DNA of 64,000 bases from Escherichia coli (GTDB lineage: Bacteria > Pseudomonadota > Gammaproteobacteria > Enterobacterales > Enterobacteriaceae): the NCBI RefSeq assembly GCF_003790525.1, contig NZ_CP033635.1, one strand, 5' to 3'. The notes below the pieces were generated by a model. The model did not search any database, had not been told where the DNA came from, and saw only the letters and a list, made by a program, of their open reading frames with translations. The position numbers and the translations under genes were made by a program. Positions 2,936 to 58,290 of this stretch are shown piece after piece (within the stretch, counting starts at the first letter, position 1; every line of letters begins with the position of its first letter).

Positions 2936-3798
<863 letters not shown>

Positions 3799-49448: not shown

Positions 49449-49604
49449 CATCCCTAAAATAACCACTCAGTTATTTACCTTACTTTACGCGCGCGTAACT
49501 CTGGCAACATCACTGCAGGATAGCGGTCAATTTACCTCCTCAAACGCAACGCAAACCTAGAACGGCTTCGGCCAACTATTAATCAATACATGCCAGGTTT
49601 TACT

Positions 49605-51755
49605 ATGGATACTAAAAAGATATTCAAGCACATACCCTGGGTGATTCTCGGAATCATCGGTGCATTCTGCCTCGCGGTAGTTGCATTACGTCGGGGGGAG
49701 CACGTCAGTGCCCTGTGGATCGTGGTCGCCTCTGTGTCGGTGTATCTGGTGGCTTATCGCTACTACAGTCTGTACATCGCCCAGAAGGTGATGAAACTCG
49801 ACCCCACGCGCGCGACGCCTGCGGTTATTAACAACGACGGTCTGAACTATGTTCCGACCAACCGTTACGTGTTGTTTGGTCACCACTTCGCCGCTATCGC
49901 CGGTGCTGGTCCGCTGGTTGGTCCGGTTCTCGCCGCGCAGATGGGCTACCTGCCTGGCACGCTGTGGCTGCTGGCGGGGGTAGTGCTGGCCGGTGCGGTA
50001 CAGGACTTTATGGTGCTGTTTATCTCCTCTCGCCGTAACGGCGCATCTCTCGGTGAGATGATCAAAGAAGAGATGGGACCAGTACCGGGGACTATCGCGC
50101 TGTTTGGCTGTTTCTTAATCATGATCATCATCCTTGCCGTCCTGGCGCTGATTGTGGTTAAAGCCCTGGCCGAAAGTCCGTGGGGTGTCTTCACCGTTTG
50201 CTCAACCGTACCGATTGCGCTGTTTATGGGTATCTACATGCGCTTTATTCGTCCGGGGCGTGTGGGTGAAGTCTCTGTCATTGGTATCGTGCTGCTGGTT
50301 GCCTCTATCTACTTCGGTGGCGTGATTGCTCACGATCCGTACTGGGGTCCGGCACTGACCTTTAAAGACACCACCATTACCTTCGCGCTGATTGGCTATG
50401 CGTTTGTTTCCGCACTGCTGCCAGTGTGGCTGATCCTCGCACCGCGCGACTATCTGGCAACCTTCCTGAAAATCGGCGTTATCGTCGGCCTGGCGCTGGG
50501 TATCGTGGTGCTGAACCCGGAACTGAAAATGCCTGCGATGACCCAGTACATTGACGGTACTGGCCCGCTGTGGAAAGGCGCTCTGTTCCCGTTCCTGTTC
50601 ATCACCATCGCCTGTGGTGCGGTATCTGGCTTCCACGCGCTGATCTCTTCCGGTACGACGCCGAAACTGCTGGCTAACGAAACCGACGCGCGTTTCATTG
50701 GCTACGGCGCAATGCTGATGGAGTCCTTCGTGGCGATTATGGCGCTGGTTGCTGCGTCCATCATCGAACCGGGTCTTTACTTCGCGATGAACACCCCGCC
50801 TGCTGGCCTTGGCATCACCATGCCTAACCTGCATGAAATGGGTGGCGAGAACGCGCCGATCATCATGGCGCAGCTGAAAGACGTTACCGCACACGCGGCA
50901 GCGACCGTCAGCTCCTGGGGCTTCGTGATTTCGCCAGAGCAGATCCTGCAAACAGCGAAAGATATTGGTGAGCCTTCTGTCCTGAACCGTGCAGGTGGTG
51001 CGCCGACGCTGGCGGTAGGTATCGCTCACGTGTTCCACAAAGTGCTGCCGATGGCTGACATGGGCTTCTGGTATCACTTCGGTATTCTGTTCGAAGCCCT
51101 GTTCATCCTGACCGCGCTGGATGCGGGTACCCGTTCTGGCCGCTTTATGCTGCAAGACCTGCTGGGTAACTTCATCCCGTTCCTGAAAAAAACCGACTCT
51201 CTGGTTGCCGGTATCATCGGTACTGCGGGCTGTGTGGGTCTGTGGGGGTACCTGCTGTATCAGGGCGTGGTCGATCCGCTGGGCGGCGTTAAGAGCCTGT
51301 GGCCGCTGTTCGGTATCTCCAACCAGATGCTGGCAGCCGTAGCGCTGGTACTGGGCACCGTTGTGCTGATTAAGATGAAGCGCACCCAATACATCTGGGT
51401 AACTGTTGTTCCGGCTGTATGGCTGCTTATCTGCACCACCTGGGCGCTGGGCCTGAAACTGTTCAGCACCAACCCGCAGATGGAAGGCTTCTTCTACATG
51501 GCAAGCCAGTACAAAGAGAAGATTGCTAACGGTACTGACCTGACGGCACAGCAGATTGCCAACATGAACCACATCGTTGTGAACAACTACACCAACGCGG
51601 GCCTGAGTATTCTGTTCCTGATTGTGGTGTACAGCATCATCTTCTACGGTTTCAAAACCTGGCTGAAGGTGCGTAACAGCGACAAACGTACTGACAAAGA
51701 AACTCCGTACGTTCCAATCCCGGAAGGCGGCGTGAAGATCTCTTCGCACCACTAA
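49605..51755 (+). CDS. btsT: Pyruvate/H+ symporter BtsT (YjiY), CstA family
   Basis: ORF track 49590..51755; conserved start MDTKKIFKHIPWVILGIIGAFCLAVVAL. Confidence 0.95.
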   Translation: MDTKKIFKHIPWVILGIIGAFCLAVVALRRGEHVSALWIVVASVSVYLVAYRYYSLYIAQKVMKLDPTRATPAVINNDGLNYVPTNRYVLFGHHFAAIAGAGPLVGPVLAAQMGYLPGTLWLLAGVVLAGAVQDFMVLFISSRRNGASLGEMIKEEMGPVPGTIALFGCFLIMIIILAVLALIVVKALAESPWGVFTVCSTVPIALFMGIYMRFIRPGRVGEVSVIGIVLLVASIYFGGVIAHDPYWGPALTFKDTTITFALIGYAFVSALLPVWLILAPRDYLATFLKIGVIVGLALGIVVLNPELKMPAMTQYIDGTGPLWKGALFPFLFITIACGAVSGFHALISSGTTPKLLANETDARFIGYGAMLMESFVAIMALVAASIIEPGLYFAMNTPPAGLGITMPNLHEMGGENAPIIMAQLKDVTAHAAATVSSWGFVISPEQILQTAKDIGEPSVLNRAGGAPTLAVGIAHVFHKVLPMADMGFWYHFGILFEALFILTALDAGTRSGRFMLQDLLGNFIPFLKKTDSLVAGIIGTAGCVGLWGYLLYQGVVDPLGGVKSLWPLFGISNQMLAAVALVLGTVVLIKMKRTQYIWVTVVPAVWLLICTTWALGLKLFSTNPQMEGFFYMASQYKEKIANGTDLTAQQIANMNHIVVNNYTNAGLSILFLIVVYSIIFYGFKTWLKVRNSDKRTDKETPYVPIPEGGVKISSHH

Positions 51756-51804: not shown

Positions 51805-52008
51805 ATGTTTGGTAACTTAGGACAGGCAAAAAAATATCTCGGCCAGGCGGCGAAGATGTTGATTGGCATTCCAGACTACGACAACTACGTCGAGCATATG
51901 AAGACCAACCATCCCGACAAGCCGTACATGAGCTATGAAGAATTCTTCCGCGAACGCCAGAACGCGCGCTACGGCGGCGATGGTAAAGGCGGTATGCGCT
52001 GTTGTTAA
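51805..52008 (+). CDS. yjiX: Small protein YjiX (YbdD/YjiX family, DUF466)
   Basis: 67-aa [61 protein letters not shown]. Confidence 0.85.
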
Positions 52009-52018
52009 TGGAGAGAGC

Positions 52019-52975
52019 ATGAACCCGATTGCAGTTACCCTACTCACCGGTTTTTTAGGCGCGGGCAAAACCACCCTGCTGCGCCATATTCTTAATGAAC
52101 AGCACGGCTACAAAATTGCCGTGATTGAAAACGAATTCGGCGAAGTCTCCGTTGATGATCAACTGATTGGCGATCGCGCCACGCAGATCAAAACGCTGAC
52201 CAACGGCTGCATCTGTTGTTCGCGCTCCAACGAGCTGGAGGACGCGCTACTCGACCTGCTGGATAATCTCGACAAGGGCAATATTCAGTTCGACCGTCTG
52301 GTCATTGAATGCACAGGCATGGCCGATCCCGGCCCGATTATTCAGACCTTTTTCTCCCATGAGATTTTATGCCAGCGTTACCTGCTGGACGGCGTGATTG
52401 CGCTGGTGGATGCGGTACATGCCGATGAGCAGATGAACCAGTTCACCATCGCCCAGTCACAGGTTGGCTACGCCGACCGTATTCTGCTGACTAAAACCGA
52501 CGTCGCAGGTGAAGCAGAAAAACTGCGCGAACGCCTGGCACGCATCAACGCCCGCGCACCGGTCTACACCGTCACCCACGGCGACATCGACCTGGGCCTG
52601 TTGTTCAACACCAACGGTTTTATGCTGGAAGAAAACGTCGTCAGCACCAAACCGCGTTTCCACTTTATCGCGGATAAACAAAACGATATTTCGTCGATTG
52701 TGGTGGAACTGGATTACCCGGTAGATATCAGCGAAGTTTCCCGCGTGATGGAAAACCTGCTGCTGGAATCGGCGGATAAACTGCTGCGTTACAAAGGGAT
52801 GCTGTGGATTGACGGCGAACCTAACCGCCTGCTGTTCCAGGGTGTCCAGCGCCTCTACAGCGCCGACTGGGACAGGCCATGGGGCGATGAAAAACCGCAT
52901 AGCACGATGGTGTTTATCGGGATTCAGCTGCCGGAGGAAGAGATTCGGGCGGCGTTTGCGGGGTTAAGGAAGTAA
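52019..52975 (+). CDS. yjiA: CobW/HypB-family GTPase YjiA
   Basis: ORF track 51935..52975; conserved start MNPIAVTLLTGFLGAGKTTLLRHIL (P-loop) and CxCC motif GCICCS. Confidence 0.9.
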   Translation: MNPIAVTLLTGFLGAGKTTLLRHILNEQHGYKIAVIENEFGEVSVDDQLIGDRATQIKTLTNGCICCSRSNELEDALLDLLDNLDKGNIQFDRLVIECTGMADPGPIIQTFFSHEILCQRYLLDGVIALVDAVHADEQMNQFTIAQSQVGYADRILLTKTDVAGEAEKLRERLARINARAPVYTVTHGDIDLGLLFNTNGFMLEENVVSTKPRFHFIADKQNDISSIVVELDYPVDISEVSRVMENLLLESADKLLRYKGMLWIDGEPNRLLFQGVQRLYSADWDRPWGDEKPHSTMVFIGIQLPEEEIRAAFAGLRK

Positions 52976-53305: not shown

Positions 53306-55156
53306 ATGGCAACAATAATCCCAACAATCAGTAGCTGCAACGATAAAATTACTGCCGGAGAGAAAAGGCTGGCAAGAATTCTGGAAAGAGGACTAGGCGA
53401 AGAGTGCTGCTGTTGGTATGACATTCCCACGGGTGATAAGCATCTTCACCCAGATTTTATGATACTTTCGCCAGAAAAAGGCATTATTTTTCTCGAGGTA
53501 AAAGATTGGTTTATTACAAAAATAAAAAAAGCCAACAAGTCTAATGTGTTGTATGAGACACAAAATGGTATTCAATCTTTAAAGAATCCGATAGAACAAG
53601 TTAGGCGATATGCTTTCGAAGCTGTAAACCAGTTAAAAAAAGACCCCCTATTGTGCCAACAGGATGATCGTTACAATGGCAATCTTCTTTTCCCCTATGG
53701 ATATGGCGTCTACTTTAGTAATATTACACGAGAAGCATTAAATAATAAATTTACTCAAGAAGAGCTGCTCGGGATCTTCCCATCAGATCTCATCATCTGC
53801 AAAGACGAAATAAATGAATTCATGTCAAAAGAGGATGTTTCATCCAAAATACATTCGTTGATTAAATATGACTTCAAATGTCATGCTACACAAGAACAGT
53901 TGAACAGGATTAGATGGCACTTATACCCCGATGTCAGAATAGAAAGGGAAAAGAGAAGTAAAAACCGTGATGAATTTAGTGTCGATGCACCAACCATCAT
54001 TTCTATCCTGGATACTCAACAGGAACAACTTGCCAGAAGTATGAGAGATGGCCACCGGATCATTCATGGTGTTGCAGGTTCAGGGAAGACATTGATCCTC
54101 TATCATCGCTGTCAGGAATTAGCGAAAAAAAATGACAGCGAAAAGCCAATTCTTGTCATTTGCTACAATATTACTTTAGCCAAAAAACTTCGGTCGATGT
54201 TCATCAATCATCCCTTTGCAGAGAAAATAAAGGTTAAAAATTTTCATGCTTGGTGTTTCCAACAAATTAAAGAAAACAAGATCACTATTCCAGAAGGGGA
54301 TAATATTTTTGAAAATATGGAGCTAGCGTTGACTGATGGTTTCAAGACAGGAAAAATAAAACCAGAACAATACAGCGCTGTATTAATTGATGAAGGACAT
54401 GATTTTAAGCCAGAATGGTTAAAAATCCTGGCAAAAATGACTGACTCTCAGGACGAGAATTTGCTATTCCTTTATGATGATGCTCAGTCAATTTACCAAA
54501 AAAAGAAAGCATTAGACTTTACACTGTCCAGCGTAGATATTAAAGCGACAGGACGCACAACCATTCTTAATATAAATTATAGAAACACACAGCAAATCCT
54601 ACACTTTGCCAGTTGCATTGCATTTAATTATCTTAATAGCCATATCGATAGTTCTTTAACCTATCATAAACCTGCTGCGGGAGGAATGAATGGCGATTAT
54701 CCCAACCTTGAACATTTCGACACACAGGACGAAGAAATAGCACGAGCAGTCGAATGGATTACAGAGCAAAATGAACAAGGGATTCCGTGGTCTGAAATTG
54801 CTATACTAAGTCCATCAACTCACACCCTTTCTAACTCTCTAAGCTCTGTACTTGAATCGAAAAACATCCCCTTTAATCTTATTGTAAGCTCTGCAGATAA
54901 AAAGTCCTGGACGCCAGAACAAGAGCGTATTTCTGTTATGCCATTACCCAGCAGTAAAGGACTTGAGTTTCACTCAGTTGTCATTATTGATGCAGCGAGA
55001 ACACGGGATAATAGCGATGATTTGAGTGAGGATATAAAGAGACTCTATGTAGGTTTTACCCGAGCACGTTGCAATCTCTTGGTAACCTTGCACGGTGAAG
55101 GTGCGTTAAATGAGCATCTACTAAAAACCTATGAGCAAAGCCCACAATATATGTAA
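53306..55156 (+). CDS. NERD (PD-(D/E)xK-like nuclease) domain fused to SF1 UvrD-like helicase/ATPase, 616 aa; candidate single-gene defence protein
   Basis: N-terminal HPDFMILSPEKGIIFLEVKDW (D..E.K nuclease-like core); Walker A GVAGSGKT (aa 255-262), Walker B LIDEGHDF, motif VI-like VGFTRAR; gene is low-GC and sits where K-12 has mrr-hsdRMS. Confidence 0.8.
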   Translation: MATIIPTISSCNDKITAGEKRLARILERGLGEECCCWYDIPTGDKHLHPDFMILSPEKGIIFLEVKDWFITKIKKANKSNVLYETQNGIQSLKNPIEQVRRYAFEAVNQLKKDPLLCQQDDRYNGNLLFPYGYGVYFSNITREALNNKFTQEELLGIFPSDLIICKDEINEFMSKEDVSSKIHSLIKYDFKCHATQEQLNRIRWHLYPDVRIEREKRSKNRDEFSVDAPTIISILDTQQEQLARSMRDGHRIIHGVAGSGKTLILYHRCQELAKKNDSEKPILVICYNITLAKKLRSMFINHPFAEKIKVKNFHAWCFQQIKENKITIPEGDNIFENMELALTDGFKTGKIKPEQYSAVLIDEGHDFKPEWLKILAKMTDSQDENLLFLYDDAQSIYQKKKALDFTLSSVDIKATGRTTILNINYRNTQQILHFASCIAFNYLNSHIDSSLTYHKPAAGGMNGDYPNLEHFDTQDEEIARAVEWITEQNEQGIPWSEIAILSPSTHTLSNSLSSVLESKNIPFNLIVSSADKKSWTPEQERISVMPLPSSKGLEFHSVVIIDAARTRDNSDDLSEDIKRLYVGFTRARCNLLVTLHGEGALNEHLLKTYEQSPQYM

Positions 55157-55174
55157 AAATGATAAATTATCTCC

Positions 55175-55206
55175 ATAACGCCCGGTAACGCTGTACCGGG
55201 CGTTAT
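55175..55206 (+). terminator. Stem-loop downstream of the NERD-helicase gene (possible terminator; no clear T-run)
   Basis: 13-bp perfect inverted repeat ATAACGCCCGGTA ... TACCGGGCGTTAT with 6-nt loop. Confidence 0.4.
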
Positions 55207-55288
55207 GAATGTATATCTAAGATATTAGTCACGCCTGATAGCCGCTACCAAAAACGCCATCATCTCCCTCTCATCTTTGCTGTGATAA

Positions 55289-55594
55289 AAGCGTACCATT
55301 TTGCTGTTAAATTCCAGCGCTTTAGCCACTGGAATTAACAAGTTCAAACTTCCGACAACGAAGTTCCAGTTATTACAAAAATTACTGGCAAAAGAGATGA
55401 AAAGCGTAGTTGACAACACATCGAAATATACTGACTGGAGTAAACGCGATGATATTAAAGCGAAACTGAAAGTTGAACTTATTCTGCTTCTACACAAGCA
55501 TAAGTTCCCGCCAGTAGCGAATGATGATGTTTATATGGGTGTGCTGGCACAGGCAGAGAATTTTAAAGAACATCATATGAGTGCTTTAAATTAA
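55289..55594 (+). pseudogene. Possible 3' remnant of a type I restriction enzyme R-subunit (HsdR C-terminal region)
   Basis: Frame opens only at 55289 after a stop, no upstream coding partner; product ...TDWSKRDDIKAKLKVELILLLHKHKFPPVANDDVYMGVLAQAENFKEH resembles the conserved HsdR C-terminal YPP-containing motif as recalled. Confidence 0.4.
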
Positions 55595-55713
55595 TTATGA
55601 AGGCCGGATACACTTTGTTATCCGGCCATTGTGAATTAACGTTAATTTCTCTTCCAGATATTTCCAGTAACGCTTTTATTATTTTCTATTTTTAGCTGGA
55701 CTTTCCCTGTATT

Positions 55714-55733
55714 TACTGATGATATGTCCAGGT
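55714..55733. promoter_or_regulatory. LexA (SOS) box upstream of symE
   Basis: TACTGATGATATGTCCAGGT contains CTG-N10-CAG with AT-rich spacer about 80 bp upstream of symE start. Confidence 0.5.
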
Positions 55734-55749
55734 ATTTAGCGCGGTGCGA

Positions 55750-55830
55750 ATGTGCGCCAACACACCCGCACCGCTCATCACAATCACTATTTATGGAGAA
55801 TAGTAATCATGACTGACACGCATTCTATTG
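55750..55830 (-). ncRNA. symR: Expected position of SymR antisense sRNA overlapping the symE 5' end (approximate)
   Basis: Placed by established knowledge that SymR is transcribed antisense across the symE RBS and start codon; ends not determined from sequence. Confidence 0.35.
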
Positions 55831-56150
55831 CACAACCGTTCGAAGCAGAAGTCTCCCCGGCAAATAACCGTCAATTAACCGTGAGTTATGCGAGTCGCTA
55901 CCCGGATTACAGCCGTATTCCCGCCATCACCCTGAAAGGTCAGTGGCTGGAAACCGCCGGTTTTGCTACCGGCACGGCGGTAGATGTCAAAGTGATGGAA
56001 GGCTGTATTGTCCTCACCGCCCAACCACCCACCGCCGAAGAGAGCGAACTGATGCAGTCACTGCGCCAGGTGTGCAAGCTGTCAGCGCGTAAACAAAAGC
56101 AGGTGCGGGAATTTATTGGGGTGATTGCCGGTAAACAGAAAGTCGCCTGA
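55809..56150 (+). CDS. symE: SOS-induced type I toxin SymE (YjiW), AbrB/MazE-fold endoribonuclease-like
   Basis: ORF track 55752..56150; conserved start [48 protein letters not shown]. Confidence 0.9.
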
Positions 56151-56196: not shown

Positions 56197-58290
56197 TTAG
56201 ACCAACGCGCTCTCCATCTGTTTTTCAAATGCCTGACGAATTAATCCCATAACGTAAGGAAGTTGTGCGAGGTCGCTGAAACCAATTTCCACATCACCAT
56301 TGCCCCAGCGCCCAACATTTGTCACATCTTTGGCAATACCTTTCGGATCGACCAGTTCATGAAACTGCATATTAAGCGACAATCGCAGTCGGCTTTTTTG
56401 CGGCACAACATCAACAAAATTCGTTTCCGCTTTAAACGCAATATAGAGCTTCAATACTTCCTGCGTGATCCCTGCGTCCAGGCGCATAACTTCATCGCGA
56501 AGATGATCAAATAACACCCGGCTATGCGAACCATCAGCAAGAAAAGGATAATCACTCAGGCTATAACTGGTTTTGTTTTCAGGCTGCGCCCGATAAACAG
56601 CTAAAACCTCTTCAGGAAGAGCAGGCGCTTGCCAGACCTGAACCGCGAGATCGGCCAGACGATCGGCACGGGCGCGAATGGCGGCTTCATCCCATTTTTC
56701 GCACTGTCCAAGACCGATATTCAAATAAAGCGGGCTATGCTTAAAGCCGTCTTCAATATCGCGTTTTTCCGCGAAAGGTCTGTCACTGTAGCGGGAGTTA
56801 TAGCGCGTTAATGTGAGATTCCCCAACGTATGTAACAGTTCTTTATGCACACGCTGCCAGTCGCTTCCCAGCTCTTCACGCCATTTAGCCGACAAATTTT
56901 CGTTCTGCGGCATAATATGCTCAATCGTAAACTCTTCCACGCGCTCTCTGCGTTTATCGTTTTCCAGTCGTCGTAACCAGTAGCTGCGACTGCGGAAGTT
57001 ATAGAGATCGCGAACTTTTAATTCCCGTTTAAATTCATCATCGTTGGGGAAACGACGATATGAAGGCAGATTCAGAAAATGTACCTGAATACTTTCCAGA
57101 TATTTTTCTTTAATAATGACCTTATAAAAGGTAGCAAACGTCTTGTTAAGAGAATTTGTCGGAATCGCACATACTGCACGGCGGAAAACATAAGATTCAA
57201 TTAAACGAATTATGCTCAGGAAATCTTCGTGAGGCAAATCGCCATTTTTATAGTCATGATAAAGCGCCAGTAAGAAAGGATACGCCACATCGACCTTTAA
57301 CTCGCGCAAATCCTGAAAAGCCGTAGCAAGCGATTTGTCACTTTCTTTACCCAATGCCATTGCACAGTAATACTCCGCGTAGATGTGAATATCTTCAACC
57401 AGGTGATCCACGCCTTTTTCAGCAACACTCTGGCTGCGGGCATGGAGTTTAAATGCCTCATAGACTTCATCTGTACGAGGGATCTCCCCCGTTTTTACCG
57501 TCAGATAATGACGCATAAAGCTGTCAAAATATTCGCTGTAACCTTGCTGACCAAAAGCGACTTCCATTGGACGCCAGTGATCTTCATACAACCGGGTTTG
57601 ATGCTCTGGTTCGAGACCCATCAGAATAAAATTGCGCACCAGATCGGCCTGACTTAACGCCTTACCGGTAGAGTTCATACTTTCAAAAATCAGTTGCGGA
57701 TTATCCTGACCACGATTAAGCGCCACATCGACAATTAATAATTTTGCTAACCCACGACATAAGGGGATCAAGTCATCACCGAGTTTGGCAATTTGCTCAT
57801 CAAAGAAAGTAAAGTTTTCCATTATTCGATGGGAATAGTTTTCTGGCATTGGTCTTTGTTTTATTAACGCCAGCAAACTGTCTTTATCAGTCTCGGTCAG
57901 CAGTAATTTAAATCCTTTCTCGCCGGACTCATAAGGATTGAGTAAATAATAATTACGCAATTTCATTGCTGAAAAGCCATCAAAAACTTCGTCTTCGCCA
58001 AGATGACGCGATAAAGCCTCAATCAGCAACATTGCGGTCGTCAGCCTTTGTTGACCATCAATGACCAGTAACGGAGAAATACCAGAAACCTGATACAACC
58101 CCTGCTCAATATAAACAACCGAACCGATAAAATGCGCTGATATATCGTCACGCTTTCCGGCACGAATGATGTCGTCCCAAAGTTGCCGACATTGTTGTTC
58201 TGTCCATGAATAAGTCCGTTGATAAATGGGAATCACAAACTGCTGCGAACGTTTTAAAAAATCGAGTAGGCGGGCTTCTGTAGCTTTCAT
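56197..58290 (-). CDS. DUF262 (ParB-like NTPase) + DUF1524 (His-Me finger nuclease) fusion, GmrSD-family putative type IV modification-dependent restriction endonuclease
   Basis: 697-aa ORF with N-terminal VIDGQQRLTT (DGQQR motif) and C-terminal EFTIEHIMPQN...H..LGNLTL nuclease motif; convergent with symE, in the slot where K-12 has mcrBC. Confidence 0.78.
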   Translation of the reverse strand: MKATEARLLDFLKRSQQFVIPIYQRTYSWTEQQCRQLWDDIIRAGKRDDISAHFIGSVVYIEQGLYQVSGISPLLVIDGQQRLTTAMLLIEALSRHLGEDEVFDGFSAMKLRNYYLLNPYESGEKGFKLLLTETDKDSLLALIKQRPMPENYSHRIMENFTFFDEQIAKLGDDLIPLCRGLAKLLIVDVALNRGQDNPQLIFESMNSTGKALSQADLVRNFILMGLEPEHQTRLYEDHWRPMEVAFGQQGYSEYFDSFMRHYLTVKTGEIPRTDEVYEAFKLHARSQSVAEKGVDHLVEDIHIYAEYYCAMALGKESDKSLATAFQDLRELKVDVAYPFLLALYHDYKNGDLPHEDFLSIIRLIESYVFRRAVCAIPTNSLNKTFATFYKVIIKEKYLESIQVHFLNLPSYRRFPNDDEFKRELKVRDLYNFRSRSYWLRRLENDKRRERVEEFTIEHIMPQNENLSAKWREELGSDWQRVHKELLHTLGNLTLTRYNSRYSDRPFAEKRDIEDGFKHSPLYLNIGLGQCEKWDEAAIRARADRLADLAVQVWQAPALPEEVLAVYRAQPENKTSYSLSDYPFLADGSHSRVLFDHLRDEVMRLDAGITQEVLKLYIAFKAETNFVDVVPQKSRLRLSLNMQFHELVDPKGIAKDVTNVGRWGNGDVEIGFSDLAQLPYVMGLIRQAFEKQMESALV

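Follow-up and report, generated by a model that had tools for sequence, protein, structure and literature searches.

A short reading frame beside symE in Escherichia coli as a probable relic of a lost type I restriction-modification cassette

The alternative cassettes described for the immigration control region of Escherichia coli comprise type IA, IB and ID hsd systems, Mrr, McrBC, GmrSD, brnAT and symE/symR (PMC2481252; PMC12707154), and descriptions of cassette replacement between yjiA and yjiS go back to 2004 (Sibley and Raleigh 2004, as cited in PMC2481252 and PMC12707154). A recent review of the region (PMC2481252 / PMC12707154) records only types IA, IB and ID there and does not use the word "remnant", and NERD and Fic are mentioned in neither PMC2481252 nor PMC12707154. 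The right-hand framework gene of the island is symE, which adjoins the last gene of any resident hsd cassette. The type IA locus of strain E04 reads hsdR (1170 aa), hsdM, hsdS and symE, and the type IB locus of 'clone D i14' has an EcoAI-family hsdR (810 aa) followed by hsdM, hsdS and symE; the statement in the initial annotation that hsdS abuts symE is accurate for both of these types.

A third family is organised in another order. The intact locus of Res13-Lact-EB12-05 consists of yjiA, brnAT, a restriction endonuclease pseudogene, hsdM, hsdS, hsdR (3264 nt, 1087 aa) and symE, and the layout is shared by ST131, where 215 nt separate hsdR from symE as they do in Res13; in more than 1,000 E. 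coli genomes symE is immediately preceded by an intact 1087-aa hsdR. The parent of the fragment described here belongs to this third family, so that hsdR, the last gene of its hsdM-hsdS-hsdR order, is the natural neighbour of symE. It had been suggested, as a caveat, that the ancestral cassette might have been arranged differently from the hsdR-hsdM-hsdS order of K-12, and the intact relatives bear this out.

The frame and its neighbourhood

The window, a 64,000-nt stretch of E. coli DNA, matches strain SMS-3-5 (NC_010498.1) over 17,841 overlapping nucleotides with 0 mismatches, and a 641-nt query around the frame is 100% identical. The frame under study lies within the immigration control region (Table 1). 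It opens immediately after an in-frame TAA at 55286-55288, as first described and with the peptide that was quoted, and closes with TAA at 55592-55594; the earliest possible start in frame is TTG 55301, giving a product of 97 aa, and ATG 55397 is the sole internal ATG that opens a sizeable frame.

Table 1. Features at and around the frame, in positions of the window
Feature	Position	Strand	Remarks
btsT	49590-51755	+	
yjiX	51805-52008	+	
yjiA	51935-52975	+	
NERD + UvrD-type SF1 helicase gene	53306-55156	+	616 aa; Pfam NERD, UvrD-helicase, UvrD_C
Hairpin, G+C-rich, terminator-like	55172-55209		between convergent helicase gene and fic remnant
Fic-family gene 3' remnant	55225-55335	-	~35 last codons and stop
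Frame under study	55289-55594	+	
fic'/'hsdR deletion junction	55332-55335		4-nt microhomology GAAT
hsdR segment A	55332-55388	+	nt 2705-2761 of the intact 3264-nt hsdR; codons ~902-920, INKIKLPATKIQLLQKLL
Internal deletion junction	55384-55394		imperfect direct repeat ACTGG[A/C]AAAAG
hsdR segment B	55384-55594	+	nt 3054-3264 of intact hsdR; last 69 codons and stop
symR antisense RNA	55738-55814	-	Rfam RF01809, 92.8 bits, E=7e-18
symE	55809-56150	+	Pfam SymE_toxin, E=6e-21; RefSeq annotation
GmrSD-type gene	56197-58290	-	
yjiS	next after GmrSD-type gene	-	

The resemblance of the product to the C-terminal region of HsdR, proposed in the initial annotation, far exceeds chance. Pfam PF11867 (T1RH-like_C, formerly DUF3387) matches the frame with 65 bits (E=1e-17, cut-off 26.8), the alignment being limited to the last 62 positions of the profile (267-328 of 329), and PADLOC REase_I matches over positions 963-1027 of 1029 (E=1e-25), while no match to Methylase_S (PF01420, HsdS) is listed in the Pfam search at E up to 1 and no NCBIfam family was found in the frame. 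Descent from hsdR is indicated by this significant similarity to the C-terminal domain together with the chromosomal position and flank of intact members. The N-terminal PD-(D/E)xK nuclease domain is missing, hsdR nt 1-2704 being gone, and so is the SF2 helicase-like translocase core, the TIGR00348 region of the intact relative (residues 142-745) being deleted in its entirety; having neither a nuclease nor a motor domain, the remnant cannot restrict DNA. Neither the reading frames nor the RefSeq annotation of the region hold a cognate hsdM or hsdS.

On the right, the conserved symE/symR module flanking the cassette begins with symR. A LexA-box-like CTG-N10-CAG (TACTGATGATATGTCCAGGT) is found at 55716-55731, shortly upstream of symE, and fits the known SOS control of that gene. 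In EPEC E2348/69 (locus L014, 1250-1758) the same module of helicase gene and scar leads into symE and then directly into yjiS with no GmrSD gene, and variation in the right half of the island is therefore independent of the left half. The GmrSD-type gene of the window is a single unbroken frame of 697 codons with the domains GmrSD_N, GmrSD_C and DUF5655; on the identical sequence RefSeq has a 387-aa CDS and a separate pseudogene ('DUF262, missing C-terminus') and leaves 57361-57636 unannotated. The same split is found in clone D i14 and DETEC-C31; in EcPF15 a homologue of 76% identity carries an undivided annotation (699 aa). The split looks like an annotation inconsistency.

On the left, the helicase gene matches the PADLOC candidate family 'NERD+UvrD' C3a187 (E=1e-140). 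The hairpin that follows it folds at -25.9 kcal/mol on the plus strand and -28.9 on the minus strand (z = -5.9 and -6.9), the minus strand being scored terminator-like, and it looks like a bidirectional terminator; a comparison of the helicase 3' flank among genera, made to assign the hairpin to a cassette, gave no usable similarity. Helicase homologues of 63-64% identity lie directly after yjiA in Leclercia and after yjiA-brnAT in Salmonella (loci L009-L013); in Salmonella a 191-aa HsdS fragment comes next. The helicase gene, whose function is putative, is a recurrent single-gene occupant of the defence island.

Anatomy of the scar

The hsdR sequence is present in two pieces. Segment A is identical to the Res13 hsdR at 49/52 nt over 55332-55383 (94%) and has 92.5% identity to the internal part of hsdR in about 1,000 genomes; segment B matches the intact hsdR 3' end at 214 of 217 nt (98.6%), and across window 55384-55800, which takes in the downstream flank, identity to complete E. 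coli genomes with an intact hsdR is 94-98.5%. Between the two segments 297 nt (99 codons) of intact hsdR are missing, and the imperfect repeat ACTGG[A/C]AAAAG is present at both ends of the missing stretch: the two parents of the internal joint in the intact gene are ACTGGAAAAAG (nt 2757) and ACTGGCAAAAG (nt 3054). The deletion, 297 being divisible by three, leaves the frame open, and it is common to all five haplotypes that we aligned. At window position 55389, the C in ACTGGCAAAAG, the base is C in SMS-3-5, E2348/69 and UTME-7 and A in XH990 and DETEC-C31, C being found in the downstream parental repeat and A in the upstream one; the difference may reflect a later substitution or a different resolution of the same joint.

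Homology to hsdR begins at 55332, with GAATTAACAAG / GAATTAAC, and the DNA to the left of this point is not hsdR. The breakpoint, which had been placed at 55289, is thus located by alignment with intact hsdR loci at GAAT, 55332-55335; that alignment had been proposed as the way to find it, and it also revealed the second, internal deletion, which had not been foreseen.

The DNA on the far side of the breakpoint is the 3' end of a fic gene on the opposite strand, which is unannotated and lies between the terminator hairpin of the helicase gene and the hsdR remnant. Its minus-strand stop codon is the complement of 55225-55227, and over the stretch 55225-55335 the DNA identity is 84.5% to the fic 3' end of EcPF15 (E=3e-19) and 92% to the fic gene of E04 (E=5e-25). 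On the minus strand it encodes ...ALEFNSKMVRFYHSKD..EMMAFLV, a match to the Fic C-terminus, with which ...ALEFNSKMVRFYHSKDEREMMAFLVAAIRRD* aligns; the region of the Fic core motif, upstream of the surviving codons in an intact 244-aa relative, is missing. In other haplotypes intact fic genes are found at the left end of the region. Since homology to fic runs through ...CTGGAAT and homology to hsdR begins with GAATTAAC, both parents share GAAT, and the joint between the two remnants falls in this 4-nt microhomology.

The frame is accordingly composed of antisense fic, 19 hsdR codons and the last 69 hsdR codons, and a 90-codon minus-strand frame (55225-55497) is its mirror-image chimera. The initial annotation had described the frame as having no upstream coding partner; this stands in part, its codons 1-14 (55289-55331) being the antisense of the minus-strand fic remnant. 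The long open frame is a chance product of the two joints, and the deposited 97-codon 'DUF3387 protein' is a chimera of antisense fic and two hsdR pieces. The view that the hsd cassette was displaced by the NERD-helicase gene is not supported by the junction, at which the hsdR remnant adjoins the fic remnant, the helicase gene lying beyond the hairpin and the fic stop codon.

To the right of the stop codon, 55595-55677 (+) is the native 3' flank of the remnant's hsdR family, common only to loci with the same hsdR type, and identity of ~98% with the intact locus is contiguous as far as symE; genomes with other cassettes match only from query position ~519 (window 55678) onward. This flank contains a hairpin, GGCCGGAT...ATCCGGCC, at 55602-55627 (-19.2 kcal/mol, z = -4.7).

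As to the type of the parent, its HsdR 90% cluster has members from E. coli, Klebsiella and Salmonella, and these are the three genera of known type ID enzymes. The ancestral cassette was probably of the type ID family (EcoR9I, StySBLI, KpnAI), an assignment made by elimination and from the species in the cluster; NCBIfam does not separate IA, IB and ID for the parent HsdR, and the nearest solved structure is the HsdR of EcoR124I, a type IC enzyme, as a weak match (E=4e-24). In EcPF15 (locus L003, 12167-18097) the region contains a type I system whose HsdM has 781 aa and whose HsdR shares only 23% identity with the hsdM-hsdS-hsdR family. This is apparently a fourth type I lineage, where IA, IB and ID are the only types said to occur. 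Because of this unrelated fourth HsdR the argument by elimination is not airtight. The EcPF15 arrangement (fic, GmrSD, hsdM, hsdS, hsdR) was considered as the direct ancestor and ruled out on the same 23% identity to the remnant's parent; it shows only that fic can reside at the left end.

Origin, decay and alternative readings

We consider it very probable that the frame is a non-functional, neutrally decaying hsdR pseudogene and that an hsdM-hsdS-hsdR cassette, most likely of type ID, once lay between yjiA and symE. That the frame marks the scar of a lost type I restriction-modification system had been the central proposal of the initial annotation, and an hsdR 3' remnant at the position of intact hsdR beside symE agrees with it. 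The scar shows two deletions. An illegitimate event at the GAAT microhomology joined the 3' end of the leftward-reading fic gene to hsdR nt 2705; it would at the same time have taken out the 5' part of fic, hsdM, hsdS, whatever genes lay between fic and hsdM, and hsdR as far as nt 2704, an estimated loss of 6.5 kb or more. A second microhomology deletion (ACTGGNAAAAG) took 297 nt out of the surviving piece, the frame being kept by chance. If this happened in place, the helicase gene would already have been resident between yjiA and fic when the deletion made the scar. The remnant may owe its survival to its small size and to its place next to the conserved symR/symE control region.

The age of the event can be judged from five aligned copies (SMS-3-5, E2348/69, UTME-7, XH990 and DETEC-C31), which differ by up to 3.6% of DNA in the helicase-gene region and by up to ~6% in the remnant region. 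Both junctions are identical in 5/5 of these diverged copies, and the event was therefore single and old. The haplotype of helicase gene plus scar occurs in ~2% of complete E. coli genomes and is a single old lineage. Decay has taken different courses within it: in XH990 and DETEC-C31 a +1 T insertion in segment A divides the frame into pieces of 37 and 65 codons, and in UTME-7 the ATG at 55397 has become ATA. The lineage-specific changes in segment B comprise 11 non-synonymous and 3 synonymous substitutions (a small sample, n=14); between two intact hsdR genes the corresponding 70 codons show 1 non-synonymous change and 3 synonymous ones. The frameshift or lost ATG in some copies, together with non-synonymous changes at 11 of 14, points to neutral decay. 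A consensus scan of the plus strand from the hairpin to the frame (55210-55400) predicted no sigma-70-like promoter, and the AAGAG that directly abuts ATG 55397 is too close to it to work as a ribosome binding site, so that, judged from such signals, the remnant is probably neither transcribed nor translated to a useful extent.

A replacement in one step, which comes near the displacement proposed in the initial annotation, is possible, albeit doubtful. A single event, by homology-facilitated illegitimate recombination, would have replaced the whole stretch between the yjiA stop codon and hsdR nt 2704, incoming DNA with the helicase gene and a partial fic recombining homologously in or next to yjiA and being joined illegitimately at GAAT in hsdR. 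Homology with other haplotypes does end exactly at the yjiA stop codon, and the helicase gene, the fic remnant and the hsdR remnant are inseparable: the fic'/'hsdR junction is linked to the helicase gene in 100/100 complete E. coli genomes that carry the latter, and all public contigs examined with an identical helicase have the same scarred context. The Salmonella helicase homologues, too, adjoin a type I fragment, HsdS. However, the DNA that adjoins the hsdR remnant is fic and not the helicase gene, and fic recurs at the left end in other haplotypes; being a recurrent resident elsewhere, it need not have arrived with the helicase gene.

Nor did we find a donor with the helicase gene plus an intact fic. 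A scan of contigs for an intermediate or donor carrying the helicase gene with intact fic or hsd gave one shortened locus in Escherichia sp. E1V33, which has no downstream DNA; an exact look-up of the helicase protein returned solely the same scarred context; the 64%-identical Leclercia and Salmonella homologues have different right-hand neighbours; and nothing close was found among plasmids. An intact ancestor, with fic plus the same hsd family, was likewise not found. It is in the order of events alone that one-step replacement departs from the preferred explanation, the identity of the frame being unchanged. Both histories, deletion in place or one-step replacement, fit the data, and the frame is a relic either way.

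Very unlikely is the suggestion that the stub has been kept for a reason, whether as a landing pad of ~350 bp, made up of the hsdR 3' end and its native flank, that together with yjiA would allow a complete type ID cassette to be regained through homologous recombination, or as the source of a low-level peptide (55397-55594) hindering type ID assembly.

We also attach very little credence to a working small protein, in which the whole frame, or its last 62-65 codons from ATG 55397, would modulate restriction as a free helical C-terminal HsdR domain bound to type I methyltransferase cores, or would aid the helicase. HsdR contacts the methylase through its C-terminal region in EcoR124I and EcoKI, the last 65 codons are open in all five copies, and some pipelines deposit the product as a protein. 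Against these points, UTME-7 lacks the start codon and a frameshift interrupts the long frame of XH990 and DETEC-C31, the substitutions are mostly non-synonymous, there is no evident promoter or usable ribosome binding site and a hairpin stands upstream, helicase homologues in other genera have no such neighbour, and the region has no cognate hsdM or hsdS. An intact small accessory gene, the alternative raised in the initial annotation, is rejected on the same grounds, neither frame nor start being conserved and synonymous changes showing no excess. A remnant of hsdS, as K-12 gene order predicts and as the hsdS-symE neighbourhood of type IA and IB loci would allow, can be dismissed almost outright, given that no Methylase_S match is listed for the frame, that its DNA is 98.6% identical to hsdR 3' ends and that hsdR abuts symE in the hsdM-hsdS-hsdR family.

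Annotation and comparison with described loci

The fragment has been flagged before. RefSeq PGAP annotates a pseudogene, ECSMS35_RS24580, at 55385-55594 ('type I restriction enzyme endonuclease domain-containing protein; incomplete; missing N-terminus'), and the same pseudogene is annotated in every other carrier that we opened (E2348/69, UTME-7, XH990 and DETEC-C31). On 454 contigs the 97-aa translation has been deposited as 'DUF3387 domain-containing protein' or 'hsdR-like', and several gene callers deposit the 97-aa or a 62-aa product as a protein. As a fragment already marked as a pseudogene it is ordinary, and both the remnant as a pseudogene and the exchange of cassettes at this locus are already known. 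The present analysis adds the precise anatomy of the scar with its two microhomology junctions, the unannotated fic remnant on the opposite strand and the chimeric nature of the long frame. Beyond a tidier annotation this has little significance, the locus being a textbook case of restriction-system cassette exchange; the details of the scar could serve as a haplotype marker with which to trace exchange at the defence island.

Compared with what has been described, ECSMS35_RS24580 is the same DNA but covers segment B alone, omitting the 57-nt hsdR segment, the internal 297-nt deletion, the fic remnant and the junction microhomologies. The closest intact relative, HsdR WP_000058888.1 of Res13-Lact-EB12-05 (also in ST131), has the same 3' flank and is 98.6% identical in DNA across the final 211 nt; of its 1087 codons the remnant retains 88, the nuclease, the SF2 motor and most of the helical C-terminal region having been lost. 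The hsdR of ST131 strain MB1159 is of the same family, stands at the same position and is also inactivated, but by truncation through insertion of IS1, and it retains 2.8 kb plus hsdM and hsdS, unlike the deletion stub described here. With the cassette variation already described for the immigration control region, the remnant shares the locus, the anchor genes yjiA and yjiS and the phenomenon itself.
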